A stretch of 62,808 nucleotides of DNA, filler included, from Sluysia triapertura (Eukaryota): the NCBI GenBank assembly GCA_046118255.1. It is 5 parts of 5 records of this genome, joined end to end, with 100 filler letters (N's around TTAATTAATTAA, not from the genome) between each part and the next. Parts side by side here need not be neighbours in the genome. Positions count along the whole stretch, not along the records: positions 51,153 to 62,808 come from JBJNIA010182369.1; 4 more parts are not named here. One strand, 5' to 3'. Made by a program: the position numbers and the translations under genes. This document shows, in pieces, positions 4,676 through 62,808 of the stretch; position 1 is the stretch's first letter, and each line of letters opens with the position of its first letter. Below the pieces are notes generated by a model. The model was given only the letters and a program-made list of their open reading frames with translations, ran no database searches and had not been told where the DNA came from.

Positions 4676-4676
<1 letters not shown>

Positions 4677-4743: not shown

Positions 4744-4744
<1 letters not shown>

Positions 4745-22639: not shown

Positions 22640-23502
22640 CTTGTCTTAATTTCCTACAATCTCTTGAGTAATGTCCATTTTATTATACTTGTCACAGATT
22701 ATTTCTCCATCTATATTAGTTTGAGTCTTATTATTACTAGGTGGCCATCTTGGTGCTGGTCTTTGTTCATAGTTAGAAGAACCATAATTACTTACTTGGA
22801 ATCCACTATCTCTATTCGTATCACCCCTATAATTGCTTGAATTACATCTGTAATTGTTTGAATTCGAATTACCATTTCCTCTACGTGGGATATTGTACTT
22901 ACTGTCATTATATCTTTCATAATTCGGAGAATTAAATTTATTATCATCATAATTATGTATATTTCTTCTTAATTTCGGACTTTTGTCTCCTTTGTCTTCA
23001 TTATCACTTATATAATCAATATTATTCTTATTCTTTTTATACTTATAGGAACGTTCTATACTTTTTAATTTCTTAATTACTTCCTTAAAAGGTTTTCCTT
23101 CTATTAAGGTGACATATGTTATTAATTCTGGCCGCAACTCAGTTTTTAATTTATCTATTAATGTTATTTCTTTTTATCTTCAGGAATTTTAGCTCTAGCG
23201 ACAAGGCATTTAAAAGCACAAGCGTATTCATAGACAGATTCATTTGGCTTTTGTATCCTAGAGTTTAACATTTTAGTATAATATTTTAATAAAATAATAT
23301 TTTAGTATAATATATAATGTCATCAAGTGCCATTTCTTCAGTAAATGCGTTAGCAAATTCATTCCAAGTCTGTTTATTATTATTACTTATTTCCTTATAA
23401 GTCTGGGTCGTCACTCCAGTTAAATAATTTTGGATTCGTTTTATTTTTCGGCTTCATTTCAACCGTTTACTTCAGCTATGCTTTCATATTCGAATAAGAA
23501 AT
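22640..23502 (-). pseudogene. gag: Gypsy gag with zinc knuckle
   Basis: Retrotransposon gag motifs and a degenerate CCHC knuckle across a frameshift. Confidence 0.8.
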
Positions 23503-25398: not shown

Positions 25399-26530
25399 AT
25401 TTGACCTTTACTCCAACTACTAAAGACCTTGATTCCACCCACCAGTCAGATCGATGCATAATAACTCTGACTATAACCTTTCCAACGCCAATTCCAGAAA
25501 TTCCGTAAAATTGGAGGTCATTTTGTCGTCATTTTTCCCTACAATTAAGAAACCAGTGTTGTATATTCATGACTGATGCAGAAATAATATACCGCAACTT
25601 AATTTTTGTTTCCTGAAACATTCGACTTACCTGTCGTTGGTGTGGCTTCGAAAGAGAAACTGTTGTCCATGTATCATTCCGCATACCATCAATGGCCGTA
25701 CAGTAAGACATAATAAAAATGTTGAATGTTTACATAGTAAACTAAAATAAATGGGCTTCTCGGTCAACAACGACATCAAAATCCCTAGTTGGAGTATCTT
25801 CAAGCGCAAGGTACTAATTCTTCCCAACTCTTTTTCATAGACATCAAATCTCTTATTTATGAAAACTTTCTAGCGGCACGATCATTTAATATTACCAAGT
25901 ATTCTGATCTGAAGAAAAAACTCAAAGACCCAGAAAAAGTAGGTTCCGTAAAACTGATATTACTGGTTTGGCAAGCCACTGTATCAAACTATATCTAGAG
26001 GACCATTCCCTTTTGATTTTCTTTTTATGGTGAATAACATTATGCTTCTTTCTGTTCTTCCCTTTAATACATTAATAAAATCTTTTTAATTTTCCAATAC
26101 GACACTATAATTATTTTTTCCTTTTTTATGTATGTTTGTAAATCATCGAAGTTTTCTTTAATGTAATGAATTGTTAAATTATTCCAATATTTCTTTCCTT
26201 TTTTCTATGAATGCTTGTTTATCTTTTGTTAAATATAACTGTATACCTATAATAAAATGATACTTTGACGTTTTTTGCTCTGTGAATATATACCTATTTC
26301 TATGAATGTTTATATAACACATATATTTTTCATTTTCTGTATAATTTAAATATGTGTTGCGATTTTGTACTTAATAATAATAACAAATTAATATCGGTTA
26401 ATCTATTTAACAAAACTTCAATAATTAATCACTAAATTCAATGTAAAGCTAAATCCACTTCATATATACATATTCATCATTAACATTTATTCGTAATAAC
26501 ATTATAATATATTAAGATTTATTTTGTAAT

Positions 26531-26630
26531 NNNNNNNNNNNNNNNNNNNNNNNNNNNNNNNNNNNNNNNNNNNNTTAATTAATTAANNNNNNNNNNNNNN
26601 NNNNNNNNNNNNNNNNNNNNNNNNNNNNNN
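26531..26630. other. artificial contig linker
   Basis: N-TTAATTAATTAA-N, 100 bp. Confidence 0.97.
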
Positions 26631-28879: not shown

Positions 28880-29400
28880 TTAGAAAATGAGGATGAAATA
28901 TTAGTGAAATGGTTTGTTTGGGAATGAGAACCTTAAACATTTTCCATTAAAAAATTGAGTGTGAGGAATTGAAAATTAATTAAAAAGTAAAAACTAAAGT
29001 TAAATTCAATATTTTTAAGTATGTTAATAATAATAATAATATATCAATAATAATAATAATTGTTATTTTAATGTAAGAAATGATTCATGAAAAACTAGAT
29101 CGAGTAGAGTAGAAGAAAAAATGCGAGTTGATTCTTAATCGAATTATTTTGTTTTTCTTGACAGGTCGTACCATGTAAGTGTCATTGTCGTTTTAGTCGG
29201 TTTAATCTTTAAATGATGTTTTGATGATTTGTGTAAGAGTAATTCCTAATTGCGAATGCAGAAATGATTGGATGACAAAAAATGTGTAAATTAGAATACT
29301 TAGGCATTTTTAGACTTTATTTACCGTTGATCACAAACAAGAAGATCCATGCTATTTGTATCTTTTTATTTATATAATTTTGTTTATAATATTAATTTTA
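28880..29400 (-). repeat. internal fragment of the ~2-kb LTR-like family
   Basis: Similar to 44900-45370 (e.g. GTACCATGTAA, AAGAAGATCCATGC). Confidence 0.7.
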
Positions 29401-32400: not shown

Positions 32401-33893
32401 TGTTGCGTCTATAATATTTATTAAAACCAAAATATTAATTTAAATTACTATCAACTCAATCATTTAGTATTTACAGAATCAAGTACAATTTAACAATAAT
32501 ACAAATGAATTAAATAAAAATGACTAAATCTCAAAATTAACAGTAATTTTTTGACACGATAACATATTCCAAGAAACCAGAGGTGGCGCAATTAACATAA
32601 TAAAATTGGTCATTCATATTAACACTTAACAAATATAGTTTTTTTAAATAAATAGCAATTTTCATTAGTCAAATCACAATATATCATCCAATATAATAAA
32701 ATAAAAATTATAATTCACTAATTTTTCTATACTAAATAAAATTTATTAACTACAAACCGACTTTATTTGTCAATTAATCAAGAAACAAAATGTTTAGCAC
32801 AGCTGTAAATAATTAAAGAGGAATTTTGCCATAAAAAATAATTTATTTAAAATCAAAATAATAAAATAAAATAAATTCAGAGTTTTACCCAATACATGGA
32901 TCTTCACATCAGCAGCATTAAAGTCTTATTACTTGTTGTGTTGTTTTTAAAATTATTTGATGTTCCCTTTTATAATTTCCTGAATATTTTGATCAAACAT
33001 TCTCTCACAAAAATCATCACAACATTCTTTGATAATTACAATCCGACAATAATAATTTTGACAGTTACATGGTACAGATGCAGAATAGAAAAAACTGATT
33101 TATGATCATCTATTGTTTCCTTTTACTTTACTCGACCTATTTTTACTTAAATTACTTCTCACATTATAAATAACAATCACCAGTATTGTTAACATGCGTA
33201 AAAATAATGAAATTAATTTTAGTTTTTAGAATTTAATTGACTTTCTAATGGAAAATATTTAAGGTCCTCATTCTCAAATAAACGGCTTATCCACATTCAA
33301 TTCATTATCTTTTCATCATTAAAAATTCAACATTCCATAATTAAAAGTTTGACTTTCCTTAATAATAAGGCTTTCCTTTAACGTACTCCGCCATATCACA
33401 CCTTTATCGAAAGATCTCTTCAAAATAAATACACAGAGCATTCCGCATTTAAACATAATTCACAACTTTATCTTAATTAAGATCAATCTATATTTAATTA
33501 ATTAACTTATTTTTAGACAATCTTATTTTATGTTTAGAGGTTTTATTAAGATTTTGATATTATTTAGTACTTTATTAGGCATTCGGAAGGAACTAGATGC
33601 TTTCACCTTCATCACATTGATTCCTTTTTCTACTTCTTTTTGTTAATTACTGCCATAATATTAACAACAGTGATTTTATTTATCAAATATTTTAATGATC
33701 CCAACTACTTTTTAATGTTACTCAAGTCTTAAATGCTTAATGAGGTCTCAAAGATTCTTAAAAATTAATAAGATGATTAATACAAGTTAGAGGTTAACAT
33801 AAGTTCAAAGGTGTCCTAATGCCTTTAAAGTCTTTTCAGGTTCATCTCAAACTTTAAAGATGTTTTCGTAACTCCAAGGTATACTTAAGATAT
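32401..33893 (+). mobile_element. older relative of the ~2-kb LTR-like family, target of the 33894 insertion
   Basis: Begins TGTTGCGTCT; shares internal blocks (CATGGATCTTC, ACATGGTAC, TTTCACCTTCA, GAT(T)CCTTTTTCTACTTC); 3' end not resolved. Confidence 0.65.
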
Positions 33894-35635
33894 TGTTGCG
33901 TCTTTAAAATTACTGACTATTACGACTCAATATAAACTTGGTTAGCTTAGAGGAACCTTAATAATTTAAATAGTCAATATATCAAATATATTTTTGCAAT
34001 AATCTTCTCTTATAATATCAATAACTATTATTTCCAAATTTAAGTACTTGATAATCAAAATCAAAACTAAGTCAATAATGTACTATTAAACAAAAATTAG
34101 TAATACAGTTTATTATTACTAATTAGTAATACAATTTAGTGAAAATTTTCACTAAATGCTGAGAATCACTAAAATGACAAAAATGACAAAAATGACAATA
34201 ATGTTTATAATAAAATTAAAGACACTACAATCTAATTAAAACAAAACAACTAGTAGTGACGCAACAACCAAAAATATGGATATCCAGAAAGTTTAAAATA
34301 GTAATGATAATTAGAAATAATTTAAAAATAAATTGGGCAGAGTGTCTCCCTCTAAAATTATCTTTTATTTAGCTGAAAATCAAATATTTAATTCAACCTA
34401 TCAACCTACATTAAAAACAACTTAAATTAATTGAAAATAATATAATATTAAAAATATCCAAATTAAAATAAAATTAGTTATTTATATTATTTTAATGAAA
34501 TAATAAATAAACAAAAATTACAAAATTTACCCTATGCATGGATCATCTATCATCACTGTTGAAATCGTAGTTGTTGCATTATTGTATTATTATTGTTTTG
34601 TAAAAATTTTGAAATCTTTATTTTATACTCTCTCACCATCCGATCAATTCAAAATCTCACAACCAAACATTCTCTCACACAAATCATTCATACCTCTTTG
34701 AGAATCAGACCGACAATAACAATTTTGACAACTACATGGTACGGTCTATCAAACTTTATTTATTAAGTACAATACATAGAAATCTGATTTATTATCAACC
34801 ATCATTTCCTTTTACTCTACTCAATCTATTACTTCTCACATTAAAATAACAATCAGCAATATTATTAACATACATAAAAATAATGAATTTAATTTCACTT
34901 ACTATTATTTAATTAATGTTCTATTTTTCAAACCCAATTTTCTAATGAAAAATGTTTTAAGGTTTTTATTCTCAAACGAACAATTTTACAAACATTTCGA
35001 GTCCTTTATCATAGCAATAATCTCATCTAAGTATTAAAAATTTAAGATTTCATAATTAAAAATTAATTAAGATTTGACTTTGCTCAATATTAATTCTTTT
35101 CTTGCATGAACTCAGTCAAACCATACCTTAATCGAAAGGTCTTTTCAAAGCAAATACATACACAGTTTCAAATTTAAAATAGCATTCCGAATTCAAAAAC
35201 GTACTTTTTCTTAATTAAGTTAATTATGATTCTTAATTAATTAATCTATTTTTATACTTAACCTTATTTTATGTTTAAAGGGTTTATTGAGGTTCTAAAG
35301 TTTTTTTAGTAGTTTATAAGACATTCAGGAGGTTCTAGCTGATTCCTTTTCCTACTTCTTCATGTTAATTATTACTATACTAGATTTATTCTTAATACCA
35401 ATAACAATGATTTTATTTCTCAACAACTTCAATGATTTTAAACATTTTATAAGATTACTAAAGGAACTTAAATATTCATCGATGTTCCAAAATACTTAAA
35501 GGTTACTAAGGTCTTAAATGATCTAAAATTTCTAAAGTTCGGAGGTACCTTAATGCTTCTAAAAGTTTTTCAAGTCCATCTCAGGCTTCCATAAAATCTC
35601 AAACCCTTACATAGGTCTTTGGAACTCCAAGGTAT

Positions 35636-35796
35636 TGTTGGGGTAAAAAGGCCTAAAAGGTGCCAATTAGTATAATTGAATATATTAAAAATGAAATTGT
35701 TAGACGGGGCTGATAGCTCAGTGGTAGAGCAGTCGGACTGCGCAGACGATGGTCCCGGGTTCGATCCCCGGTCAGTCCATTTTACGAAGTCTAACA
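35636..35796 (+). mobile_element. ~160-bp tRNA-cassette element, copy 3, TSD GTAT
   Basis: GTAT|TGTTGGGG...GTCTAACA|GTAT; sister LTR copies (~25233, ~33878) show a single GTAT at the empty site. Confidence 0.92.
35707..35779 (+). tRNA. tRNA-Ala-derived pseudo-tRNA inside mobile element
   Basis: Intact acceptor, D and T arms; G3:U70; anticodon arm unpaired. Confidence 0.7.
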
Positions 35797-36879
35797 GTAT
35801 TCTTTAATTGTTAACATTATTATAGATGTTTTTATTTTAATGATTCAAATTTCTACAATGTTTATAATGTTCAATCCATCAATTTGTATCAGTTTTCTTT
35901 TCATTTTATAACTCCATAGGTTTCTCCCTCATTTCCTGACATATACTTGTGAATCCCAACAATATGCGTAAGAAAATAATTACTTTATTATTATGATGTT
36001 ATATCTTATACTGATGTCTGAATGATTAAATTTCACTTAGGAATTTAGGTTTGATTTTAACTTCCTGCCCTCTTATTATTGAGGTTTAATTATTGTTGAT
36101 TTTATAATATATTTAAACAGGATCCTAAAAATGATTTCACCACCACATTTAAACAGGTGTGAAAACAGTTTTACAAAGACGACTTATTTTTCGCATTTAA
36201 AACTATAATTTATTTTTTATATTGTAGATATCAGTAAAGGGGGTTTCAAAATGGTACCGGTATTTAAATCTGTTTAGGTAGTTTTGCGTTATGTAAAGAG
36301 AAGTGGTTTGGAAAATCGTTATTTATATTCAATAAGTATGTAATGACTAATATTGTGCTATTGTGTGAATTAATATTGATTTTTATGAACATTAATTGAT
36401 TTTTATAAACATACATTTATTAATGATATTATTAACAATTATGATTAACACATATACATTTGAATTAATATTGATTTTTATGAAAATACATATATTTATT
36501 AATATTGATTTTTCTTTATATCGAGTTAATTTGATTTGTATTATTTAATTTAATTTTTTGGAAATATTTTTGGAATTAATCAATTATTCTTAAGGTAATT
36601 ATTTCTTTTAAAATTAGTATTAAAATTTAAAATTAGCATTAAAATTTAAGATTATTATAAATTATTTTGTAAATTATTTTAAAATCTAAAATTATATATA
36701 TTTCTCAAATAAATATTAGTTTTGTTTTAGTCTGACCAATGTCAGACTACAATAAGTATAAATAAGCGAAATTTTAGTCACAACCTCCATAATTTTTTTG
36801 ACTCGAATAGAATTAGTAACCGAGCTCCTTTTCTTCGACGGAAAGTGTAATTAACACACTATTTAGAATATCATCTTTT

Positions 36880-38691: not shown

Positions 38692-39238
38692 TTATTCATT
38701 TTCATTAAAATTTCCAATAACTTCTTCATAAATAATACAACCTGGTAGTAAACGATAATCGTTGAGAATTCGTAAGTCATTACTTTGAGGTGGTTTATAT
38801 ACAATTCCATTCTTTTCATAAGCAAAAGGAAATCTTAAAACCCATAAACGACCAGGTTCTAACTCAATTCTTTCATTCAATACATCACCAGGACTAAATA
38901 TTGGTACTTGAGATTTTTCCTTGCTACTTGTATCAATATCACTGTTGCTTGCATCGCCAGGTTGTACTCTTGGTTGTAAAAATATACGTAACAAACCATT
39001 ATTGTGAGGCGTAGCAATATATAAACGAGCTAATTGAGCTAGATAATGACTACATTGACATGGAAAATACAATGAAATTGGTCGAGTAAGAAGATCTGCT
39101 ACAGCTTCTTTCACTTGTTGTGCTCCCATACTACCAGTCATCATATGTTCAGGACCAGCCATAAAAAAGCGATGACCAACTGGACATTCCATTTCATAAC
39201 CAAAAAATGCTTTCAGAAAATTACCAGCAGCAAATGCT
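38692..39238 (-). CDS. SMG8: nonsense-mediated decay factor SMG8, C-terminal exon
   Basis: FGYEMECPVGHRFFMAGPE...LYFPC...AQLARLYIATP...QPRVQPG...LWVLRFPFAY matches the SMG8 C-terminus; runs into the gap. Confidence 0.92.
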
Positions 39239-39338
39239 NNNNNNNNNNNNNNNNNNNNNNNNNNNNNNNNNNNNNNNNNNNNTTAATTAATTAANNNNNN
39301 NNNNNNNNNNNNNNNNNNNNNNNNNNNNNNNNNNNNNN
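39239..39338. other. artificial contig linker
   Basis: N-TTAATTAATTAA-N, 100 bp. Confidence 0.97.
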
Positions 39339-44084: not shown

Positions 44085-46060
44085 TGTTGGGATTGCCCAA
44101 CTGTGGATCTGGAGACGAATGAAAACATATAAATGAAGGAAAAATGGATATACATTGATGAATTGAACATGATAAACATTGTTGGAATACGAATCGTGAA
44201 AGTGAAAACGTCATAATAGTGTTAAGAGTTTCAAAGACCTATATGGAAGGTTGTAAATGACTTGGAAAACCTTTGAAGGTATTAGAATACCTTTGATCTT
44301 GCGGACATTGAGATAATCTCAGACTTCATTAACCTTTAAGCATTTTTGAAACTTGATATGTATCTAAGATCTTCGAGTGATATTACATAATGTATAAAAT
44401 CTTTATAATATTTGAGAAATAAAATCATGGTTTAAAATAATAAAGATGGGTTTAATATAGTAATAATTAGCATGAACAAAAAAAGGAAACAGAGAGGTGA
44501 AGGTGAAAACATCCGGAGCCTCCTAAATGCCTTATTAACTACTAAATAACTTTAGAACCTTAATAAAACCTATAAACATAGAATAAGATTAAGTCTAAAA
44601 ATAGATTAATTAATTAAAATCTTAATTAACTTAATTAAGAAAAAATACGTTTTCGTGAATATCTTTTGAATGTGGAATGCTTTGTTGAATTTGAAACTGT
44701 GTATGTATTTGTTTTGAAAAGACATCTCGATGAAGATATGGTTTGACCAATTTCATGAAAGGAAAGCCTGAATATTGAGCAAGGTCAAATTTTAATTAAT
44801 TTTTAATTATGGAATGTCAAATTTTTTATACTTAGAGTAATACAAATGTAATGAATAAAATATGAAATGATTTCTATTACGAGGAGAATCTATAAGTGAG
44901 TTTGAAATGTTTGTAGAATGGTTCGTTTGAGAACAAGAAGCTTAAAATATTATTCATTAGAAAATTGGGTGTGAAAAATTAATCAAATCCTAAAAAGTGA
45001 AATTAAATACATTTTTTTATGTACGTTAACAATATTGTTGATTGTTATTTTAATGTGAGAAGTAATTTAAGTAAAAATAGATTGAGTAAAGTAAAAAAGA
45101 AATGATGACTGATAATAAATCAGAAATCTATTTTTTGTACTTAATGAAGTTTGACAGACCGTACCATGTAATTGTCGAAGATGTTATTGTCGGTTTGATT
45201 CTCAAAGAGGTTTGGATGATTTGTGTGAGATAGTGCTTGATTGTGACACTGGGAATTGACTGGATGATGAGAGAGTATAAAATAAAAATTTCTAAATTTT
45301 TACAACACAATTACACAATCACAGGACACAAGAAGATTTGCAGAATTAAGAAGATCCATGCTCTTGGTAAGGATGTTTTATTATTTTACTATTTTATTCT
45401 AATTTATTATCGATGTAATATTGTTATAATATTCCGATTATTATTATCAATATTATTTCATCTGTTTTTAAGGGAATTTCAAATCATTTGGTGAGAGACT
45501 CCTTTTGCAATTTATTTTTTTGGGATTTTACAATTAGTTTTGTGAGAGACACCCTACACATTTTACTTTTCAAATATCTTTTTTTATTTATTACTATTAA
45601 ATTTTAGGAAGAATCTCGGACCAAATTTTTGTTATAATATTTAATTATAATTATGTTTGGTTAGATGTCTGGAAAATTTTGGGCAGTATCAATATTCTTT
45701 ACTTTCTAGATATTGATATTTTTAATGTCTGTTGGGTCACTCCTGGTTTCTTTAGTTATATTGTAGTGTCCTTAATATTATTATTAATCTAGACTTTTTA
45801 ACCAGTTTGAATATTGTTTAGTGGAGATTTATAATAATAATGAATAATATTTTGCTTTTTGTTTAATAGTAAATTATTGTGTTATTTTGATTTGATTTCA
45901 AAGAGTTTAATTTTTGGAATGAATAATTACTGATATTAAATAAGAGAATTTTTGAAAATTTAGATTTGATCTAGTGAATACTTAAATAATTGAGATCCTA
46001 TTTAAGCTAATTAAGTTGATATTTATTTTAAATAATTTAATAATTTTCAAAGACGCAACA
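44085..46060 (-). mobile_element. ~2-kb solo-LTR-like element, TSD ATTC
   Basis: ATTC|TGTTGGGATT...GACGCAACA|ATTC; reverse-complement homolog of 33894-35961. Confidence 0.9.
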
Positions 46061-49000
46061 ATTCTACTACTTTGTTATATAAATTTTTTATTCAATTTTA
46101 TTCAGACAAAGTTCGAAATGGAGTTCAGAATACTTGTATTAATCTTATCTATTCATTTAACATTTCTATTTTGTATCTACTCAATAACTGTTCATAAGCA
46201 AAGACTAAGTCAGCATATTCAGACTAACAATCTTTGTATGTCAGACTGTTTTCAGAAAGAAGAAAGGTCAAAGAAGTTCAATATCTTAGAATCTCGAGAT
46301 GTAATGTTGTCCGATTTTTTCTCAGGTAGGGACAAAATTATTCAAGCCACTGAACTATTACCACCTTTGAAAGATTGTTATACATGCAATGTTTATCTTA
46401 TATGCCGTCAAATATCATATGGTGTTGATGCAGTTTCTTGAAAAACCAAATCAAAATCAAATCTCCGAATAAAGCACCTTATCATAAACCAATTGATGTT
46501 ATAGATGGAAGTGAAGAAGATGATAAACTAGATAGTGCTCAATATAAAAAAACATTAGATAGCGTCTGTATTACGAAGGGATTATATGCAAGATCATGCA
46601 GCTTTTACCGTCAATATTACAATAAAGAATGAAGTATATAGCGATGGAAATAAAGTTTGGATATCCGAATAAGATATGAATTATATCAAGAACTTGATAA
46701 AACAAACAACTAATAATGTTAATGACTTAAGTACTGACAATGTTGTGATGAAATATGTATTATCCAATAGAGAGCGCAAATTTGATTTAAAGAATCCCAA
46801 TAGGGTAATTGATGCAGTCGCTAGACCAAACAAATCGAAAATATTGAAATATGAAAATAAAACCCGTAAAAATGTTACAATTATTGATGATGAATACAAT
46901 TTAATAATATTTTATTTTGTTAAATAGGAAAATAATACTTAACGTTTTACAATTTTTGCATTACAAATTTAGTTTAACCAAATCTAGTTTTATATTTGTG
47001 TACATATCGATTTGAATTTTTATTTAAAAGTTTTAATAAAATTAATAAATTTCTAAAATACTAAATTATATAATTTAGAAAAATATATATACGCTACTAA
47101 AATTAGTAGCTTACCACAGACTACAATCATTTATTTTCGATTTTAACTAAAATATTTGTATTTGTTTATATATTTTAATTGTCATTGCAACTGATAACTT
47201 TGGAAATTAGTTATTCAGTCATTACTTTTGATTAATGTTAGTAAATTTATTCATTGTTTTATACAAAGTCAATAAATTAATGAGAACATTTAAGTCATAC
47301 ATCTTTAGATCCTGCTCAAATAAAGTTCATAATTGAAACTCTTACGAAATCCAATAATGGTAATTATATTGATGATAACTGTAAAATCACTTTCAACGTT
47401 GGAAAAAAACACCATAAAATATTAGTTCATCATATAAAACTGATCATTCCTATTATGTTTATGTCTATAGATCCAATGAAGTTCAGTACATTAGTGATAA
47501 ATTTAGTTGTAACTACGGAGATTAATAGCACGAATCAATTCGAGAGATTCCCCTTTTCCTACTATCTACACAGTCGATGTATGGGTTAATGGATATCAAC
47601 ACTCATTTATTTAGTGACAGTTTAAGTTCGAGTTCTCTATTGGAATTCATCATTTGCAATAAATGTATTCAATGTTCATTTGATAATCGACGTGTATCGA
47701 TATGCGGACAACCTTGTGCGTTATCAATCAATATCACGCACGAATCACGACATAAAATATTAATTCGGTTCACTTTTCTAACTGCCTTAGTACTATTTCT
47801 TTTTACAGATATTTCTTTTAAGACTTTTAAAGTTTTTTTGATACTCGTCGTTTATAGTTTACAATAAAATATCTCTTCGTGTTTATTTTGATCATTCCAA
47901 TTTTTTAATTTATGTTCAATTTAATGTTAATTTTGTTTAATCTTGAAAATTTTATTAAACATAATTTTCAGATTTTTCATTTGATACTTCATTTCAATAA
48001 ACTTCTTCAAATTGTATCCATATTAAAACTCTTTAATATATGCTTACCATGCCTCGCTATAACAGCGGACGTAATTATAACATATATTAGCAATTTAGCT
48101 ATTGACAGCGGTCTTTATTTTACTTCAGAAAAACTCGTTGCACCACTTTAAGTTGACACTTTAATTTCATAAGTCAAATATCGTACGAAACTCACAACTT
48201 ATATATAAAAAGAAAGAATAATTATATTTGAGAAAAATCACCATGATAATGATGAAAAATATAAATCGACATTTTTTTGTTTGACATTACTGATTAATTT
48301 GTGTAAATTTTGATTTTATTTTTTAGTACCTATTTATTTCATTTTTTATGACAAAGTTAGTATTTTGTTAAAATAAAAAATTCCTTGGAAATGTACTGAA
48401 CTTATAAATTAAAAACAAAAAAAATAATCAAAAATAATTCGTTTGGGAATGCGCTAATGATGCTAATTTGGATATTAATTTTAGAGCATAATATTCAATT
48501 TATTTTAATCTTCATGGTATAATTATATTAAAAAATGGAAGTTGTATGGATGTGTTTAGTTTAGTCGAAAAACCAAATTATAATATGCATAAAACTTCTT
48601 GTTATGAAAATATTCGTAAATGTAATTATGGTTAGATGTATAATTTTGATATTTCATATCATTTTAATAAAACCAAAATATTTTTAAATGGTATTCAATG
48701 AATTTTGTGTAATACAATATACATAGAAGTAGAAATCATTAATTTTGCTGAAACTGTTTATAATAATTCAAAATTTGCAGTATATAGTATAAATTTCAAT
48801 TCAATTATAGAAGTAGTAAAATATTAGATGTCAATAATTAAAAGTAAATAAAACATTAATATACTAAAATATTTGGTTGAAAATATCTAGAAGAATTAGC
48901 TAATCATAATATTTATATAACCTATGGATTGCGAAATTGTACGAAAAATGTTATAACTATTTTGTATACAAATTTGAATGAAATTTCTCATTATTAGTTT

Positions 49001-51052: not shown

Positions 51053-51152
51053 NNNNNNNNNNNNNNNNNNNNNNNNNNNNNNNNNNNNNNNNNNNNTTAA
51101 TTAATTAANNNNNNNNNNNNNNNNNNNNNNNNNNNNNNNNNNNNNNNNNNNN
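51053..51152. other. artificial contig linker
   Basis: N-TTAATTAATTAA-N, 100 bp. Confidence 0.97.
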
Positions 51153-52900
51153 AGATCTAGAAACTGTGACCGAAGAGAATAGACGTCTTAAAACAATAGT
51201 TAAAGAATTATTAATCAAACTTAAACGACAGAAAATTAATAATGAAGCAAATCGTGAAGAAACCGATGAAGGAATGTTAGGTAATTTATTATTCACAAAG
51301 GATGTTGGTAGACACACTAAAGAAAATGTTGTTTTTGATAGTAATGCTAGTAATAAAGAATATATAAAAGATACTAAAAAGGACATTAGCAAATTTCAGG
51401 AAATAAAAACTGAATTAAGAATGATCAGTAATAAAAATAAAGAAGATGGAAATCAGAACCTGTATTAACTGAAAAATGTGATATTAAGTTACAGAAAAGA
51501 TTAATAAATACATTGTGCCTTGGTGACATAGTAAATAAGCAACACCCTTCTTTTGAAAAAGAAATAATATAAGAAAAGTCTACAAAATGTGGTAGAAGTT
51601 GTTTTGTGAAAAATAGTATTTCATTATTAAAATATATTTTACCATTAATAACTATTTTAATAGTTCTTGGAGAAAATCACCAAAAATTTAGACTTAGAGA
51701 TGCTCATAGTAAAGTTTGTTCAACTTCAACAATAGTCATATTTATGCTTTCTTATTTATTCGAATTTACAACTTCGAACTCTTTTTTTGCGAAACCTACA
51801 ATAATAAATTAACAAATTTCACTTGGGACAATGAGAAGTACAACTGCATGTGGTCCTGAAAACAGGTCGACTATAGTGGATCTTAACAAAAATCCACACA
51901 TTGAAACAAATACAATTAAAAGACGGCCTGGTCGCCCAAGAAAAAAATGAAGAAAATGATATGCATCTATTTATCTTGCATATTGAGCACAAACTATTTG
52001 TCGAGAAATACTTCACCTAAAATAATTTTGATATCTACCCAGAAAGACATTTACTCTAAAATATTAATAGATAAAATTAAGTTATTTTCTGTTCAAATAA
52101 AATGTTGTATAATGGATTAATGTGAAATTGAAATACGGGCAAGTAAACAAGATTTCTACTGGTTTACATCTTGCATTGATCTTGCTGAATATCAATTAAT
52201 TAGTGTAACAATAACTATAGAACTGGAATATGATTCCCAAAGTGACTCAAAGACTATTTTGATGCGGTATTATAAAATAAAGACTAAACCGTTTACTTTT
52301 CAACAATCATTAACACATGATAGCAAGACTGAATCCCAACAATCGTTGACATCAATTGAATATCTACCGTTATCTGGGAAATATTGTGCGTATCCATAAT
52401 CCATTATGTGGTAATACATTAATAATCGCATATGAATTGCCTGTTGGGTTACGTTATGGAATAATATTACCTGATGATTCTATTCGCTTGTATCGTATAC
52501 CAAATAATAAACTCGTGTTTATTAAATTTTGGATATTAAGAAAACCAGAAATACATGATTCAAAAGGATTTTGGCCAATTGTAGATAAGTACCAAAATGA
52601 TTTCGATACGAAATCAGAGAAAATGATTAGAATTAATAACAATTTTACGAATGTACCTTATGATAGGAACAGAAATATAGGTTCGAATACTACCAGCATA
52701 AGTATGAATATCAGTAAGGAGAATAACGAATGTTCAATTATAAAAGAATCCAACAACAACTTCTTCATAACTTTAAATTATATTTTAATAATAATTTCCT
52801 TACTAACATTAATAATTAATTTTATTATTTATTTATTAGGCACAGAGGCCACTTTCTCATATAAGTTGTAATATATTGCATTGATGACCACATGTAATGG
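51153..52900 (+). mobile_element. heavily deleted, divergent relative of the Gypsy family (copy C)
   Basis: IVDLNKNPHIETNTIKRRPGRPRKNEEND at ~51865 matches the AT-hook ORF of copies A/B; ORF 52356 ends ISMN...NFFI+TM like ORF 57667. Confidence 0.65.
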
Positions 52901-55734
52901 TCATTCATCTTGGGTCATGTGTGATATTAAAATCATAAAAAATTAATTTTAATTTTGTAAAGATAGTAAGGATCATGCATATGACTATTTGTAATGGTTT
53001 ACCATTCATTTCGAGTCATACGCAAACTAAAATATCACTTAACTTTTATTTAGGATTAGGATTTTTTAATTTTTTATATTTTTAATTTACAATAGTACTC
53101 ATTTTATAACCGTATTTCAAAAACGGTGTTCCTTAAATCTTTTTATCTTTTCTCTATGAAATTTTACCTGGATTTTGCGACCGGAATAAAATCGGCGACT
53201 TTATGTTAATTAATGAATGAAATCAAGTAAGAAATAAAAATATATTAGTTATACAATTATACAAAATGATTTTATATAGGAGATAATAAAGGTTATATAA
53301 TAAATGTATAAATAATTTAATAAAGATTATAAATATAATCTTTTATTAATTAATTACCTCCCTCTTAAAAAGTGGGTTGTTAAAAAATTTTACAATCTAT
53401 TAAAATTGAGGAAAACTTATGAAAAACAAACTAACGGTTACAACAAATGGATTATAGATAAAATTTCCAAAAAATTAAATATCGTCCAAAATTCGAATGA
53501 ACTTCAAATAAAAGTTCAAATTAATCGCCGAAGAAAATTGATAAAATTTCAGAAGTTCCTTGAAGATCGTGGTACAAAATCTTTTGATTATTATGTTGTG
53601 TGTTTTTTGTTAAATGTTATGTGCCTTTTATAGTAAATGAGTGATAACTTTGACTGATATTTATTTGAAGAGTTAATTTGTTTTAAAGAATTTAAGAAAT
53701 TAAAAATATAACGATTTTAAATAAATAATAATAATAACAAGAATACCAACAAACTATTAAAATTAAAATCAATAATTTTATTTTAAACTATTAGAATTAC
53801 AATAAAAATTTTATTTTTAGATTTTACAATCAATTTTTAGATTCTACTTAGTAAAAATCAATAATTTATATTTACAGACCTATTTTAGATTAAATAGGTA
53901 AACTATTATAAATTTTAGTTAGATTCTATATTTACACCTATACATAAACTATTTTTAGATTATAAATATAAACTTTAGATATTGACATAACTTTCCCTTA
54001 CGGAAAAATTAGTCTCTAATTTTAAAATAGTGTGGTATTATTATTATTAGTCAAATTCAGAATCACTGTCTAATAAAGTGATCACCGGAATATCATCACC
54101 ACATCCAAAAAATTCGTTTTCAGTTAAATTTTTACCCAGAACACCATATTCATCATTGTCACTGTTATCACTATCGTCTAGATCGACTGGCGAATCCAGT
54201 TTTCTTTTCTTGATAACTGTATCTGACGCCGGATGTTTCGATGTTACCATTTCTGTTTTTGCCGGTTCTCGGTCTTCTGTTATCTTTTCATCTTGTAATT
54301 GTGGATCTTCCTTATAAAATTTCTTGTTATTTAAATTTTTTGATGTTACTTTTATGACTTTTGTGAGGAGGTGTAAAAGGAATAGGCCTATCAAAGTATG
54401 GAAGTTTTGTGCAGATTATGGCTTTGTTAGAAGATGTAGATGGAATGAGAGAAAGATGTGAAGGAGAAAAGGGTGAATGAGAAGAAAAAGAAGGCAAAAT
54501 TGGAATAGAAGTAATTTTTGAATTGTCGATCTATGGCAGAAAGAATCTGTTCTTATTTTGTATCAAGTCAAATAATGATATTAAATCCTTAGCGTGCTCT
54601 AAACATGAAACACGCGGTGGGAAGAGATTTAACAATTTCAAAACCTTCCGCGCCCTTAAGATTGGATTAAATGACTTGTGCGAAACTAAATTTGTACATG
54701 TGAGATTAATGATTCCCCTTAATCAGCCGTATTGAATTTTAAATGTATTAATAATTATGTCGGGGAAGAATGCGACTAATATTTTATCGTATTGTGATGT
54801 AAGCCAATGTTGGCGGATGTCAGCTGTCTTTCGCATTGATAAGGTTGTCTTCCCTTAACCAAAGTTCTGCCGCTAGAAAGTTCCTAATTCTTATACGTGG
54901 TCTTAGTAATTCATCCGAATGGAAAAGTTTGTGATATTGTATTAAACAAACTCTTATTGGCTGGTAATTTTCCTTAAAATCTAGTGCCAACTGTACTGTT
55001 ACGAAGACAAGTTTATTTTTGTCTAACATGGATATATGTGGGGTATGAGTAAATGTTATTCTTTCTTCTCACTTATAAAGATTATCTTTGTCCTCGGCGT
55101 ATAATAAAGGGTGTTTAGTCATATCTAGAGGTTTATCAATGTTCAAAAAGAAAACAGCGAAGGTGGTAGACAGTTCTTCCGCTTCAATGTATACTTTGAA
55201 ATTTGATGTCAGATTTGTTATCACTAAGGAAGAATAGCCTTGTATTCGTGAATGTAGAGGGACTTTGTTCACGAATAATGATATTTTGAGGGAACCCCTA
55301 GCTGCGGCAATAAGCACCTACTGTCATCTTTAAGGTATCCCTGCAAGGTATTTATAATTAAAGGAGATTGTATTTATTGTATATGAAATAAATGTGTGAT
55401 AAAATTTTGGTCCAATTCATTCTTTAAAATGTTTGTTGTTAGGTTTGATTTTAAAAATACATAAGGGGTATCATATTTGCCACAAAAGCTATCTATTCCA
55501 TTGTAAAAAGAGGGAATATTGTTTGTGATGTATGCATGTGGAAGAGTGGTTGGAGATATCTGAATGAAAGAACATGTTTTGTAAAAAAGTAAATACAAAG
55601 TTAGATATTTTAATCGTTAGTTTGTTTAGTTTGTTATTAATATTACATTTATTTGATTATTAATTAACCTATAAATTTTAGGAATCATAAAAAGAAAATA
55701 AATAAAAATGAAAATAAAATATTAAGTACGTTTC

Positions 55735-56193
55735 TTTTTGAAGAACGGATTATTTTTAATTCTTAAATTGCTTTTATATGATCCCATCTTTTTATAGAAT
55801 CATCTCAATTGTCTCCTGCGACGGTTGTGTTTTTGTGAACGTGTCAGTCCAGGAGGAAAATTTGGTTTAAGTATACTTATTTCCTGTTTATTGTTAAATT
55901 GCTTATAATAGGTGGGTTGAATAATTTCTATATCTTCTATTTGAATATTTTCTGTATTACTATTTAGTGAAATATCTTAAAGTGCATATGAATGGCGGAA
56001 TTTTACCTTACGAAATACCTGTATTTCCTTTACTATTGTTCTACATAATGAACAATTCAAATACTTAGTTAAAGTAAAATGAAAAAGATTTATGATGCAT
56101 TTAAAATGGAATTTACGCATGCATGGAAATGTTTTTACATAATGTTTTTTTATGAATTGACTTTTGACAAATTGAACATTTGATGCAATACAT
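55735..56193 (-). pseudogene. RING-H2-type zinc finger ORF
   Basis: CSICQKSIHKK/HYVKTFPCMRKFHFKCIINLFHFTLTKYLNCSLCR across a 1-nt frameshift in an A7 run. Confidence 0.75.
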
Positions 56194-56459
56194 TATCTAA
56201 AATATGAATGAAAAATTAAAAAATAAAAATATACTTAGTAAATAAAATTTATTATTATATTAAATAATAAATTATTATTATATTAATTAAATAAAGTTTA
56301 TGTTCCTATTTAATGTACAAAGCTAAGTAAAACTGCGAAAAGACCATTAATAATTTTAAGTTAGGTGACCGGTCAGACAGAAGGTAACCGTCAATATCGA
56401 TCACTCGTAACTTATTCATTTTTTATTCATTTCTATACTTTGATTGAACAAGTTAATCT

Positions 56460-58400
56460 ACGCGTGTTAATTACATAAATTTTTATGATTTCTGTCGTAA
56501 GAGTGACTGCAAGTAACGCAAAAAGTATGAATGTTATAAGACATAAATATATGTTGATTTTATTTGAATTGGCTTGTCGCTATTGCTGATTATTTTTTAT
56601 TTATTGATTTTACCATTTCATACTTATTATACTTATTTAATGTCTTCAGTAGTTTCATTAATGATTGGTACTACTAAATTAAATTGTCGTCCAGGCCAAA
56701 TGCGGTTCATTCTAAATGTTTCATTAATGAAAAATATCAATATGTATATAAATGGGAATGTCAATTTTGCTTGGTAATCTATTCTAATTGTTAACTTAGC
56801 TGGTATTAACTCTAAAGAGGCTTTATTGGTACGATAATTTATGGCAATTGAATTATTTAATAACGTGTTGGTCATTTTAACTGAGTTATTTCTGTCAATT
56901 ATTGCTGTAAAGGAGCAATTCAACCATTGTCTACTAAAATAGTCAAAAAATAAATATGGTTTGGTTTTAATCCAATGATACTGTGTATATATTAATCTAT
57001 TTATTAGCGCTATTGTTATCTTAACTTTATATAATTGAGATTCGAATAATTCTTCACAATTTATGATCCACTTTTTGATTGTTTTATAAGGAATTGTAGT
57101 ACATTGATCTTGTAGACAGCATCATATAGATAAGTGAATTAATTTTCCATTTATATTTTTAACAATAGCTATAATTTCATCGGTCTTAACTTGAATAGAT
57201 AATTGCATATCATTATGAAACATTTTCTTATTTAATTTATTTGTTATAATCTTAGTCGAATAAACGGTGGTTATACACGTCAAACAAATACATAGTAAAA
57301 CTGATGACATTTGAATTCCATTGTAATGTGTCTGAAATCTTAAATCATATTCATATAATGGAGATGGCATTATTGGTGGTAATGGTGGTCCTTGAGGGGC
57401 ATAAAATCGATTGATTATTGGTACTGAATAATGATTATCCTCGTCGTTATTAGATGAAAAATTTGAATATCTGCACTTATTCATTATAAAAAACATGATC
57501 ATTAAGAATGTTATAATTAAAGCAATAATAAATAAGGTTGCTGCTATTATTAGAATTACCAATGATGGATCCTTTCTTAATGAGTCGATAATTGTTAATT
57601 CTTTTCTGTTACCTTGTATAGCATAATGTAGTTGTTTAATTATTTTGGTTTGCTTTATAAATATTACTATGTGTCTATCTTCCGAAAGCAAAAAATCCTT
57701 ACAAATTGTAACGGGATATTGCGTATTTTAGGTATTACATGTTGATGGGTTTTCCATATACTAAAATTGAATCTTGAGGGATTAATACATATATATTGTG
57801 CTTTTATATTCGTACTGGTCATTTTAATTTGTACTTCAGTATCATAGTTGTAAAAATCGAAATATTGTGATCTATATACCTTTTGTGATCCATTTACTAT
57901 TGATACCAATGATAATATAGTGAGTAACATTATGTCTCGACGAATATTATTAGTTCTTAAAATTCTGTTACAAATAATAATATAAATACTAAATAGCAAG
58001 TATATTATGGTAAAAATTAGAAGTGCCAATATAAAGAAATTCTTTGTACTATCTTTTTTCTTTTCCCTTATTGTATTTGTACTTACTTCTTTATCATTCA
58101 TACTTATTTCTTTATTTGTTGATCTTTCCAGATTTCTTGTTATTGGTGTTAATGCTATTGAAGTTTCCTTGTATTATTGTTCATTAAGTATGTCCGTAAA
58201 ATTTATTGTTACCAATTTACTGTCATAAAATGAAAATCCGATTAATGTAGTAAAATAAATTGAATGTTCACATTGATAGATATCATATATTAACAAAGGT
58301 TTCTTTATTACTAATGGTTTCAAATAGATACAATAAATTTCTAAATTATAATTGGGTATTGGGTTTCTATCGTCTACCTCAACTGTCCAAAATCGATTTA
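56460..58400 (-). pseudogene. tandem type-I membrane glycoprotein polyprotein
   Basis: TM, internal signal MLLTILSLVSIVNG, TM with Tyr/Pro tail, internal signal MSSVLLCICLTCITTVYS, N-glycosylation sequons (NCS, NNS, NET), terminal TM. Confidence 0.55.
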
Positions 58401-58537
58401 AAATATTTTAAGAAAGATTGCTTGTTTAGTATTAGTATAACTTGTTAAGTTTGCTGGATAATTAGGTACCATGGTTGTGTATTGCCGTCATCGTTATCTG
58501 TTCCTTTACCCGATGTTGAAGAGACTGTGGTATCCAA

Positions 58538-59160
58538 CTAATCAAGATTTTCCCAATTTGGAGTTGGCGATGGTGTTATGATTGGATTTAATGCAGTAAT
58601 TTGATAATTTTGTGGTAAAGGTTGTAGTGCTCTTGGCATTGGAGGTAAAACTAATTGTGGTAATACTTCATGTGTTCCTAAAGGTATTTTAAGTAATCCT
58701 AATCTTCCACGAATTACTATGTTTTCTAGTTTATTTATTACATCCATTCCTAATATAATATCATATGGGCATCTTTCCCAAGCTAATATTTTTACAAACA
58801 GGTCTACATCTAAGATTGTTAATTGACATTGTAATATTCCATTAAATAAAATATTTGAACCATCCACTTCAAATAATCGTTTTCCGGCTTGTTGTAACAT
58901 AGTAATTTCTAAAGCAGTTAGTATATTGTAATTGATAATAGTGTTATTTGAACCCGTATTTATAACTGCTCGTATCCATCGTTGATTGAATTTAATACTT
59001 TGAAACAGGTGATTTTGTATATTAAAAGAGGTTATCATATTTATTGCACTTATTGGTTTATTGATCATTAAATCCGTACTTGTTGGTTTAGACGGTGTAC
59101 TTAATAATTTAGATGGTTTATTTCTATCTTTAATCCTTGACTTTACTGTTAATATACTTT
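58538..59160 (-). CDS. retropepsin-like aspartic protease located 3' of integrase (catalytic D to N)
   Basis: IRAVINTGSNNTII...YDIILGMDVI match the A-L-I-DTGS and DIILGMD retropepsin motifs. Confidence 0.85.
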
Positions 59161-59670
59161 TCGTACTTTCCTATTTCTTAAGTTATTTTCGTCATTAGGT
59201 GCTAATTTACATCGATTTACGTGTATGACGAAAGTCTCTGCATTCATATCATTAGGTTTCTTTATATATATAAATTAGTAGAAGTTGTTTTCATTATTTC
59301 ATATGGTCCCTTAAACGGTTTATGCAATTTCGGAGAATATCCTGGTTTTGATATTGGGTAATCTACTAGTACTTTATCTCCTACTTTAAAATTATGATCA
59401 TTTGTTTTTTTATCATAGTTATCTTTATAAGTTTCCTGTGTATAACGTATCTGTAACCCAGCGCGTTTCCACGCATCTTGTAAATTTTCTCTCATAATAG
59501 TTACATATTCAGGAGTTTCTAGATATTGAGATGACGGTGGAATCCAGTCTAAATCTACTGGCATATTTGAGTGTCTACCGTACATTAGATAAAATGGTGT
59601 AAAATTAGTAGCAGGATGTACTGAACTTCTGTAAGCAAATAAACATGGAGCGATATAAAGATCCCAATAC
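59160..59670 (-). pseudogene. pol: Gypsy integrase C-terminal part with GPY/F module
   Basis: WDLYIAPCLFAYRSSVHPATNFTPFYLMYGR...FKVGDKVLV...FKGPYEI...VIHVNRCK. Confidence 0.92.
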
Positions 59671-60465
59671 AAATGGCATCTTTTCACATTCATATAATTC
59701 ATTTCCACATGAAAAAGCTGTCTTATGCTTGTCCTTTTCTGCAATTTCTATTTGCCAATAGCCGCTTTGAAGATTTAAAGTCGGAAAATATTTTGCTTTT
59801 CCTAATTTATCTAACATTTCATTGATTCTTGGTAACGGAAATACATCTTTTCTTGTTATCTTATTTAGTTCTCTAAAATCAATACAAAATCTCATAGTTC
59901 CATCTTTTTTCTTGACTAATAATACTGGTGATGAGAGTGGAGAAAAGCTTGGTCTAATTACTCCAGCCTTTTTCATTGTGTCTATTTGATCTTTCATTTC
60001 TTGTTGATTGCATAATGGAATTCTATAAGGTTTCTTTCTTATTACTTTATCTTCTATTAATGGGATTTCGTGTTTTATTATAACGGAATCTCCAATATCA
60101 TATTTATTTCTTGCTATTGCCCAAAGATATCTGTAGATGACTTTGTATAACGTTTCTTTTTGTTGTTTAGTTAAATTCTTATTTTTTATTTGTATTTCTT
60201 CATAATCTTCTTCATCTTCAATATCTCTTTGAAGTTTTATATTCTTATCCTTTGGTTTATCATTTGATACCATATTTATTTGTGTTTGTAATTTATAATT
60301 AACTATTTCTCCCAACTTTGTTCCTGCGTATAATCATTTATTTTCATCAGTATAATTTATTATTCTTGTACATTTCCATCTTGAATTCTGCAAATTGAGT
60401 CAGCAATACCTATGTTTAATTTTTTGATTATTTTTTGAAGCGATAAACATTATTGGACCATTTCT
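59671..60465 (-). pseudogene. pol: Gypsy pre-RT linker and RT N-terminus
   Basis: KKPYRIP...GVIRPSFSPLSSPVLLVKKKDGTMRFCIDFRELN...FPLPRI...SGYWQI...KTAF...MPF. Confidence 0.95.
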
Positions 60466-60489
60466 CAGTTTGTCTCCTTTATTTAGGCT

Positions 60490-60826
60490 TTTGTATCCAA
60501 TTTCGAAAGCATTTCTACAATTATTTGGTAATATTTTAAATGGTTTCTGTACGTATGAAATATCAATAATTGAAGAATACCATATAACCACTGACCTTTT
60601 AACCAAACATTCCCTGACCAAAGTTGTGACCAAATTCCCGTCTTGGTATACATTGAATACTTTCATATCTTTTATTTTGACTCTATTTGGTCTTGATTCC
60701 AGACAATCTTCAGTGTCTAATAGAGAAAATTTTCTTCCAATTTGAGGTTGGCTACAATAAAAAAGCCTTAATAGCATTAGTCTTATGAATTCCAAATAAT
60801 GCCAATAAAACAATTATAAATAACAT
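60490..60826 (-). pseudogene. chuvirus-type glycoprotein N-terminal fragment, copy B
   Basis: CSQPQIGRKFSLLDTEDC...VYQ...VRECLVKRSVVIWY-SSII...ILPNNCRNAFEIG. Confidence 0.65.
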
Positions 60827-62808
60827 TATTTATTGAAGTTCCAAATTGTGAGAATGATCCATTTGAATTTTCTTTATTATTAATTAGTCTAGATATCATA
60901 TTAAGTGGTTCATTTAAAGTATTCTTTTCTTCTTTTTCTTTGTCTTTGATAATATTTTTCCATCCTCCTAGTTTATTTATCAGAGTACTTAATTTCTTAT
61001 CAACAAAGTTTATGATTTTATCTATCTTTTCTTTAGTTAAAAGTGTAGCTTTATTACATTGAAATATTACATAAGCCATTATTATTTTAAGTCTTTCCTT
61101 ACTTATTCCTGCGTTAATCTGTTTATTTATTATAGTTTTATACTGCCCATTATCTATATAATCGCTTATATCTGTATTTTTATACTTTTCCATTATTTTG
61201 ATTATCTTATTTAATGAACTCTTGTATTCTTTTAATTCTGGTAACAAAGTTAGAAAACTTATTTGACAATAATGTATAAATTATAGTTTTAGTACTTAAA
61301 GTCTCATCAATATTTTTATAAGCAATTTTTGTTAAATCAATGGGTCTTCTATGTATTGGGTTTGAAATTATTGTTTCATCATCGTTATCTTTAACTTTTT
61401 TAGGTCTACCTGGCCTTCTTTTGAAAGTATTTGTTTTTTAATCTTCCGTTTCTATATGCGAGTTTTTATTTAAATCGATTATTTAATCAGGTTTTTCTTC
61501 AATGTCATCTTCATTATCATTAGTAATATCTATTATTTTACTATCGTTATAATTATCTTTATTTTCTTTATAATTATCATCCATTAATTCTCTTAGTAAT
61601 GAACGTGGGGTTCTGTCTAAATCAACATTATTATCATCATTTATTAATTCATCTAATTTTCTTAAATCATCGCAAGGTTTAGTGTATGCCATTATAACTG
61701 CGGAAGTCATTGATGCTTCCTTACGGTTTCCATTCATTGATGGATAACCGTAATCATTTATATAATCATTAGGTAATAATTTTCTATCATAAAATATAAA
61801 TCAACATCAGTAATATCAGAGTCATTTGATTTAAGTAATTCTATAATATCTTTTGCAATTGAAGTAACTGGGAGTTCCATAGTAATATTCAAAACATTAT
61901 TAATAATTATACCTATTTTCATTAATTCTTTGTGGTTATCTTTTTTTCATTTTTGCCCTATTTTTCTTAGTAATTTTCTTGCTTTAGTCTTATATGAACT
62001 ATCTTCTTTACTTAAAATAGCTAATACTAATTTAATCTCATGTCCATTTTGTAAGCTCAATTCTGAATTCAATAAGTCATTCAAATTTTCATTTAAATCC
62101 TTACCATGAGTCATATTGGATAAAAATTCTTCGATTTTTTGATCAATTCCTGGGGTATCTATTTTATCATTTGTAGCTGTTATTATTGATTCCATTTCTT
62201 CTGTTTCCATCTTTTCTGTGACACTGTTATAAGTATCTTCTTCCTCTATGTCAATTTTTTCTGCTTGTATTTCTTCATCATCAGTTTCTTTATTATTAAT
62301 AATATTTTCTGTCTGTTTCGACTTCTTTGTCATCACTAAATTCATTATTTGATTGTTTTTCTTCTTGATTTAATTCTTCTTCAGTTGAACTCGATTCTAT
62401 ATTCGATTCTTCATCTGTTGGAATTGATTCTATATTAGATTCCTCTTCTGTTTCATCATTACTTTCTTTTGATTCAAAATCTGCTAACTTGTTTGATTCT
62501 GTTTTCTTTGTCTTTCCTTCCCATTTGTCAATTAATTCTTGAATTATTTTTCTTTTAACTTCATTTGATATCACTTCCTTTATATCCTTTATTTGTTCGA
62601 TGCTTTCTCCTAAAGGTTGATCTAATAATTCCCGAATTCTCACCTGGATTGGTTGAATTGTTCATCTGTTTTCTTCTTTTTCTCGTTGTTCCTTTCTCTG
62701 TTTGTCTTTCTGAAATTCCAAATATCTGTCGTGCATATAACTCATAAAGATTTCTTCTTCTTGTTTATTCTTAAATCTATTTTTATCGCAGTCCAGTCCA
62801 GTGATATA

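Follow-up and report, generated by a model that had tools for sequence, protein, structure and literature searches.

A membrane-protein array with a probable fibronectin type III ectodomain at the end of a decayed, gB-bearing Ty3/gypsy element from Sluysia triapertura

What is a run of short, membrane-protein-like reading frames doing at one end of a retroelement in the genome of Sluysia triapertura (GCA_046118255.1)? The window, by which we mean the whole stretch of DNA analysed (62,808 nucleotides, 25% GC), is interrupted by N-padded linkers at 12420-12519, 26531-26630, 39239-39338 and 51053-51152; since it is joined from at least five pieces, only 51153-62808 (JBJNIA010182369.1) is surely contiguous with the array, which lies in this last part on the minus strand at 56460-58400. 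A first-pass annotation had proposed a virus-style polyprotein of tandem surface glycoproteins with a signalling-like tail, carried by a retroelement. We find that the array region is the tail end of a decayed retrovirus-like (Ty3/gypsy) element that is dead in its present copy. Our preferred reading, to which we assign a probability of roughly 0.65, is that it is the accessory end of a gag-env(gB)-pol element whose tandem type I membrane proteins were cut from one polyprotein, with a fibronectin type III (FN3) ectodomain in at least one of them. In the order of translation, the array consists of the following parts, the hydropathy of the anchors being the 19-residue Kyte-Doolittle value.

58408..58684, minus strand: Pro-rich linker and broken stretch, the expected place of the first signal peptide, none being found there; loose ends of other copies at 58306 and 58349
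58039..58407, minus strand: ectodomain 1, with two Cys 20 residues apart and one stop near 58175
57976..58032, minus strand: transmembrane anchor 1 (hydropathy 2.83), then a short basic loop
57889..57930, minus strand: putative internal signal peptide 2, in frame with anchor 1 (from hydropathy only)
57566..57888, minus strand: ectodomain 2, with a frame break near 57730
57506..57562, minus strand: transmembrane anchor 2 (hydropathy 3.18)
57311..57475, minus strand: cytosolic tail, Pro/Tyr-rich (15% Pro, four PxxP, no PPxY)
57257..57310, minus strand: putative internal signal peptide 3, in frame with the tail (from hydropathy only)
56636..57256, minus strand: ectodomain 3, its first half (3a) homologous to the relatives' FN3 units (best of 2496 tiles) and its second half (3b) unassigned; stop near 57123
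56496..56552, minus strand: probable transmembrane anchor 3 (hydropathy 2.57) and short tail, in a different frame from the other two anchors after a break near 56630

Both junctions of anchor side and internal signal peptide quoted in the first-pass annotation are present verbatim on the minus strand and in frame; the Met codons of the signal peptides lie at 57930 and 57310. At the array's predicted signal peptides the in-frame hydrophobic stretches end in small residues. To this extent the polyprotein array stands, but two stops, near 58175 and 57123, and two breaks, near 57730 and 56630, keep the present copy from being one open frame. Before ectodomain 1 we found no clear signal peptide (best 11-residue hydropathy, 1.8), and a type I topology for module 1 is presumed. 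A Cys pair is kept in module 1, with a spacing of 20 residues, and in module 2, with one of about 28, compared with 18-27 in the relatives described below. The tail was said to carry SH2, SH3 and WW ligand-like motifs; four PxxP and three Yxx-hydrophobic/Pro words are there, but the PPxY ligand of WW domains is absent, and only the Pro/Tyr-rich character is common to the relatives, with whose tails this one is weakly similar (scores reached by 10 to 147 of 1000 shuffles).

Could such an array be a product of base composition, with hydrophobic stretches and junctions arising by chance in decayed AT-rich DNA? The 25% GC of the window would suit this idea, and the N-glycosylation sequons counted earlier in favour of surface proteins are at chance level: they are not enriched in either count (3 against 2.96 in shuffles; 6 against 3.4, reached by 11% of shuffles), and one of them lies in the cytosolic tail. 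Against it, 56460-58400 holds three stop-free frames of 162-201 aa, whereas a frame of at least 150 aa appeared in 0 of 1000 dinucleotide-type shuffles, and it holds six strong hydrophobic peaks compared with a mean of 0.76 over 1000 shuffles. Because of these two results we do not regard the array as an AT-bias artefact, the explanation that the first-pass annotation had itself named beforehand as its possible undoing. The same module type in all six closest relatives and in none of 56 other elements, and the homology of ectodomain 3a to the relatives' FN3 units, speak the same way; we consider the artefact largely refuted and highly improbable.

That a retroelement carries the array, as had been supposed, is borne out by the reverse transcriptase (RT), the integrase C-terminus and a protease directly upstream of it. 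The relatives against which we read this backbone were found with the RT as query and are the proteins P0012, P0016, P0017 and P0024, a longer cluster member, P0123, and the metagenome loci L001 and L002. The recognisable parts outside the array are these.

60900..62808, minus strand: decayed N-terminal (gag-side) part of the polyprotein, running off the window end (read from frames; 77% DNA identity to a second copy)
60420..60762, minus strand: what a deletion has left of the N-terminus of the element's actual env, a class III fusogen of gB type (tblastn and profile)
59668..60366, minus strand: pre-RT region and N-terminal RT (RVT_1, E 1.8e-10)
59170..59666, minus strand: C-terminal part of integrase with an SH3-like end, 51-56% identical to that of the five closest relatives and broken in frame near 59263 and 59167
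58685..59044, minus strand: extra retroviral-type aspartic protease downstream of integrase (gag-asp_proteas, E 5e-5, under the curated Pfam cut-off)
54825..55017, minus strand: possible, weak remnant of a downstream ISG20-like exonuclease ORF (E 0.044 and 0.082)

The RT is of gypsy type, and RT and then integrase run colinear with P0123, relative to which 561 residues (the C-terminal part of RT, RNase H and the integrase core) are deleted in the present copy. A second large deletion took most of gB together with the upstream proteases. With these deletions, stops and frame breaks, the present copy has no intact, uninterrupted gag, env and pol; P0123 is uninterrupted. On the gag side, intact relatives give weak tblastn matches at 61133-60942 (E 0.015 and 0.046). 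The gB remnant is matched in tblastn by P0123 at 30% identity (E 2e-10) and by L001 at 42% (E 1e-20), a gB profile made from these two relatives aligns to it over positions 30-144 of 635 (E 2e-21), and the gB of P0123 and L001 themselves match PF24664 at E 1e-91 and 5e-94. Because gB maps as a separate domain upstream, the array region is an accessory extension and not the env, and the earlier description of it as an envelope accessory fits. The immune-modulating role that the annotation had named as an alternative gained no support. Among F-type, gB-type and phlebovirus Gc-type fusogens, we found no match in the array, whose ectodomains measure 100-200 aa; the gB profile matches only upstream. 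The post-integrase protease, with its active-site motif degenerate in the present copy, is colinear with the one that follows integrase in L002, and at 54050-55400, the place of the exonuclease ORF in L001 and L002, lie the weak exonuclease remnant and a frame with an acidic C-terminus. No long direct repeats of the kind expected of paired LTRs were seen in 51153-62808, L001 or L002; the element's 5' end runs off the window.

A second decayed copy of the element lies at 17083-23173 on the minus strand, with 76-77% DNA identity. Between the N-terminus of gB and the pre-RT region it has lost about 895 residues, which leaves nearly the same gap in gB as in the first copy; the RT match, too, breaks off at a similar place in both. 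The matching gB gaps may mark a gB-deleted sub-lineage. On the plus strand, two features lie in 51850-52871, namely a short piece that resembles the gag side of the element, at about 51880-51950, and a frame of 173 aa with a hydrophobic anchor at its end; the ORF concerned, 52350-52871, was considered as a paralogue of the array and showed no clear link to it (21 bits over 40 residues). A further dispersed repeat family has at least four copies in the window, in both orientations and with a likeness of 66-87% (23495-25403, 28885-29275, 32992-35966 and 44131-46062), and the C-terminal exon of a host SMG8 gene lies at 38692-39237 (E 1.6e-9 to human SMG8).

Direct homologues of the array pieces did not appear in a phmmer search with 364 residues against 1.84 billion representatives, in word searches with modules 2-3 and with the protease (longer proteins only), or among PDB sequences and viral contigs, and the Atlas score was 0.75 only; in bacterial genome contigs, window pieces matched four distant loci. 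The clade was placed through RT and integrase instead. In a tree of the 62 of 122 candidates that cover both domains (P0123 being left out as a near-duplicate of P0017), the window groups with P0012, P0016, P0017, P0024 and L001 (UFBoot 100) and with L002 (78). A membrane anchor follows the integrase in all six of these closest relatives and in none of the 56 other gypsy proteins of the tree. In each of the six, pol is extended in frame into a signal-like stretch, an ectodomain, an anchor and a Pro/Tyr-rich tail, so that the proposed type of tandem surface proteins has its counterpart in intact elements, which encode modules of signal peptide, ectodomain and anchor within a single polyprotein. 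The one ORF of P0123 (3735 aa) runs through Gag, gB, two proteases, RT, RNase H and integrase to a signal peptide, an ectodomain, a stalk, an anchor and a tail; L001 (3426 aa, 5' open) has the same layout, but its proteases number three and a second module precedes its pol. These two have gB, proteases, RT, integrase and a membrane module in a single ORF. Two or three aspartic protease domains precede the RT in L001 (2-10282), P0012 and P0024, and in L001 and P0012 an extra module of signal peptide, FN3 unit and anchor stands directly before the last protease. An aspartic protease after integrase occurs in two of the seven elements, the window and L002, in the latter in an intact frame colinear with the window; there the next part (3982-4776) is an ectodomain of another, Cys-rich kind, whose tail bears a PPxY. 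Pro/Tyr-rich tails recur among the relatives, with no one motif conserved in them. A separate ISG20-like exonuclease ORF follows the polyprotein in L001 (10617-12107) and L002 (5011-6528), the L002 ORF matching ISG20L2 at E 5e-10.

What, then, are the ectodomains? What the present analysis adds is their family in this clade, which is fibronectin type III, and which probably extends to at least one module of the window. In Atlas, the P0016 ectodomain falls among FN3 clusters (0.91), with all ten best family matches in one clan. The AlphaFold model of the L001 post-integrase ectodomain (pLDDT 83.8) consists of two seven-stranded sandwiches joined by a helix, and we take the seven-stranded FN3 sandwich to be present in this modelled structure. 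In Foldseek the model has 173 PDB matches at E<=0.001 (best 1.8e-6), and in VIA it reaches Z 9.9 for the tandem pair and Z 9.3 (rmsd 2.9 over 84 residues) for one domain, the matches being FN3 pairs of fibronectin, contactin, neogenin and receptors. A BFVD search returned, among its named rows, FN3 proteins of phages and giant viruses only. The Pfam fn3 profile gave only E 0.058, in one of six rows.

For the window itself, we made an FN3-unit profile from 11 units of relatives chosen by RT and integrase. It ranks ectodomain 3 first of 2496 window tiles (E 0.08; E 0.4 with an earlier, seven-unit version), and the score of ectodomain 3a was reached by 2 of 2000 and 0 of 150 shuffles, four segments having been tested. 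The scores of ectodomains 1, 2 and 3b were reached by 940, 317 and 1165 of 2000 shuffles, that of ectodomain 2 being computed with X at the frame break, and the four segments of the window (1, 2, 3a and 3b) show no likeness among themselves. The Foldseek check recommended by the first-pass annotation came out positive for L001, but not for the window's own ectodomain 3, whose poor model (pLDDT 34.9) gave only non-significant FN3 rows, dependent on the alignment used, and no FN3 in VIA (best Z 3.9). Taking the L001 fold, the 3a score and the null scores of 1, 2 and 3b together, we conclude that the FN3 fold is shown, by modelling, for one relative and that FN3 identity is likely for module 3 of the window.

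The same results invite a narrower reading, which accepts a true FN3 protein in module 3 only and sees in the first two modules either unrelated small membrane proteins or decayed passengers that now have no function. Neither of these two modules scores against the FN3-unit profile or finds a homologue among the 1.84 billion representatives or in the two word searches, and the different, Cys-rich ectodomain of L002 implies that the cargo is exchangeable. On the other side, both modules keep a Cys pair and an anchor, and many distinct contigs of other copies cover them (14 to 40 at the listed places in X1, one of two sequencing runs). We regard this narrower reading as possible but rather unlikely.

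The other copies were drawn from these two runs, with 9446 (X1) and 864 (X2) contigs on 55300-60600 and 30 of 30 bins covered; X1 is possibly the window's own source or species and is therefore not independent. Between-copy differences were available as the best 40 of 895 substitutions and 12 of 58 length differences. Among those listed, nearly all other depth departs from the present copy at the stops near 57123 (20 contigs, X1) and 58539 (46 contigs), and the protease active-site codon likewise differs in other copies (50 contigs). The frame breaks near 59263 (24 contigs) and 57730 (one deep contig in X1, one in X2) are not common to other copies, and that near 59167 is contradicted by only two contigs in X1 and one in X2. 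The well-supported length differences listed at 57095, 57346 and 59025 are of 6, 6 and 3 bases, all multiples of three. Such a pattern fits a family with open frames.

Let us assume for a moment that the modules of such a family were nonetheless separate small genes after pol, with their own Met starts served by reinitiation, leaky scanning or subgenomic RNAs, and that the in-frame junctions came from decayed stops. Both internal signal peptides, 2 and 3, do begin with Met, which accounts for 12 of the 610 residues in these frames and with which the relatives' internal signals as a rule do not begin; a stop overlaps the Met codon of junction 1 in another frame, the codon preceding the junction-2 Met is one substitution away from a stop, and the relatives carry their exonuclease as a separate downstream ORF. 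Yet all six relatives keep the modules in the pol frame, including those before pol in P0012 and L001, the junction codons are without difference among the best 40 of 895 substitutions in other copies (a weak argument), and the junction-2 Met lies in a word like those at the 60905, 60279 and 59044 borders, which are possible protease sites in a pattern noticed post hoc. We hold separate genes to be improbable, and infer that all junctions were read through in the window's family.

The short Met-containing word just mentioned is found in frame at domain borders at 60905, 60279, 59044 and 57316 (also at 22401 and 17623). The minus frames above 56400 contain six, two of them out of frame, against 1.1 expected, for a pattern chosen post hoc. 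This recurring word may mark the element's protease sites.

An internal signal opens translocation into the endoplasmic reticulum (ER), an anchor stops transfer, and signal peptidase releases the next protein. In our preferred reading, that of one polyprotein with tandem type I membrane proteins, working copies would have made a single long product running past integrase into the extra aspartic protease and then into up to three such proteins. The internal signal peptide would thread each module into the ER and the anchor would stop its translocation; host signal peptidase is predicted to free the next protein on the luminal side, and the element's own protease would probably trim the cytosolic linkers. 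At least the third module would carry the FN3 fold of the clade. The modules are not the fusogen, and cleavage would yield type I membrane proteins whose FN3 ectodomains are receptor-like.

Herpesvirus gB requires receptor-binding partner proteins. Because of this, and because the modules vary in number, place and type as attachment or accessory proteins do, we narrowly favour, within the preferred reading, surface proteins that would give attachment or cell choice when displayed with gB, at somewhat under even odds, over receptor mimics acting on the host cell, which we would place nearer to one chance in three. A host-directed role can also be put forward as an explanation in its own right, with captured receptor-like FN3 proteins serving as decoys, adhesion proteins or blockers of superinfection and their Pro/Tyr tails recruiting host adaptors. 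Fold and layout resemble the FN3 regions of cytokine receptors, receptor phosphatases, Dscam, contactin and neogenin, Pro/Tyr-rich tails recur (with PPxY in L002), and both window copies have lost most of gB at nearly the same place, as would fit modules kept without the fusogen; Burro elements, moreover, carry host-regulating domains (PMC6431247). But the tails have no single conserved motif, the FN3 resemblance amounts to 6-16% identity and favours no particular donor, and the second copy stops short of the array, so that retention of modules without gB is not demonstrated by that copy. As a full explanation we find the host-directed role doubtful.

Going one step further, one might picture, in a lineage of invertebrate retrovirus-like elements, a multi-part entry apparatus made from one polyprotein, with a class III (gB-type) fusogen, one to several exchangeable, captured FN3 surface proteins, and up to three aspartic proteases, one of them post-integrase, in which the FN3 proteins would choose the target cell (stem cells, for example), much like the receptor-binding partners of herpesvirus gB. 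This picture is speculative, and we would bet against it in this complete form.

Why should these modules matter? Env-bearing gypsy elements are described as having gag, pol and one fusogen; here a whole clade adds receptor-like FN3 membrane proteins beyond integrase. Its modules vary between elements in number, position and type, and in two of seven elements a protease sits in the unusual post-integrase place. For most env-bearing gypsy elements the mode of movement between cells is unknown, according to the part of PMC13524379 that deals with it. If functional, the modules would be concrete candidates for the missing attachment or host-modulating step. The gag-env(gB)-pol layout is already known, and the part that appears new is the clade-wide post-integrase membrane-protein array with FN3. 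In the full-text literature searched, Repbase entries and bioRxiv supplements lying beyond the search, we found nothing that joins FN3 with retrotransposons and no description of the modules; the single FN3 occurrence in the text of PMC3315495 and the FN3 domain of the Gc fusogen in the portion of PMC9094657 concerned are what came up.

Among known systems, GAG-ENV-POL errantiviruses with HSV/gB-type env have been described from Platyhelminthes, Nematoda and Bryozoa (Chary and Hayashi, PMC13524379), and they share with the window element a Ty3/gypsy pol and a gB-type env between gag and pol. By its sequence, and in an operational sense, the window element is a decayed member of this group. By eye, the gB of the window remnant, L001 and P0123 resembles six Schmidtea mediterranea rows (Platyhelminthes_C1a) of that paper and is unlike the two Nematoda_C1 rows given there. 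Together with the AT-rich genome, this likeness suggests a planarian-like host and led us to give up the idea of a nematode one. As to what lies behind integrase, the relevant passages speak of chromodomains alone, and fibronectin or FN3 occurs 0 times in the text and seven supplements, the elements being compared here by description and not by sequence. The planarian giant gypsy elements Burro/GYPSM1, of up to 25-30 kb and with BIR, BCL2-like, MATH, ankyrin and other domains (PMC6431247), resemble the window element in several ways: a single huge polyprotein, in which env stands in frame between gag and pol and accessory domains are included, many copies, and an AT-rich host. They differ in that the review, in its section on them, lists no FN3 and no post-integrase membrane protein. 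The Burro-type domains BIR, BCL2-like, MATH and ankyrin had no Pfam match in 20 window pieces, P0123 and L001, the window being without the element's 5' end, and we do not class the element as Burro.

The bdelloid LTR elements Vesta and Juno (PMC5408684) likewise carry, downstream of pol, small ORFs with transmembrane regions and others for DEDD-type exonucleases. Theirs are separate ORF3s with two TM regions or enzymes, FN3 is not mentioned in the pertinent text, and their exonucleases are DEDDy/RNase D-like, where that of L002 is ISG20-like. The succession of anchor and internal signal peptide, with release by host proteases, is shared with bunyavirus Gn-Gc and the nematode belpaovirus Atlas (PMC9094657); those precursors yield a receptor-binding protein and a class II fusion protein of 400-500 aa, in contrast to array ectodomains of 100-200 aa with no fusogen match. 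Finally, host FN3 type I proteins such as cytokine receptors, RPTPs, Dscam, contactin and neogenin stand at 6-16% identity from the element's units in structural alignments, and the element's units have a Cys pair and a linker helix and are without a catalytic tail, but the two share the same overall plan of a tandem FN3 ectodomain, a single anchor and a Pro/Tyr-rich tail.
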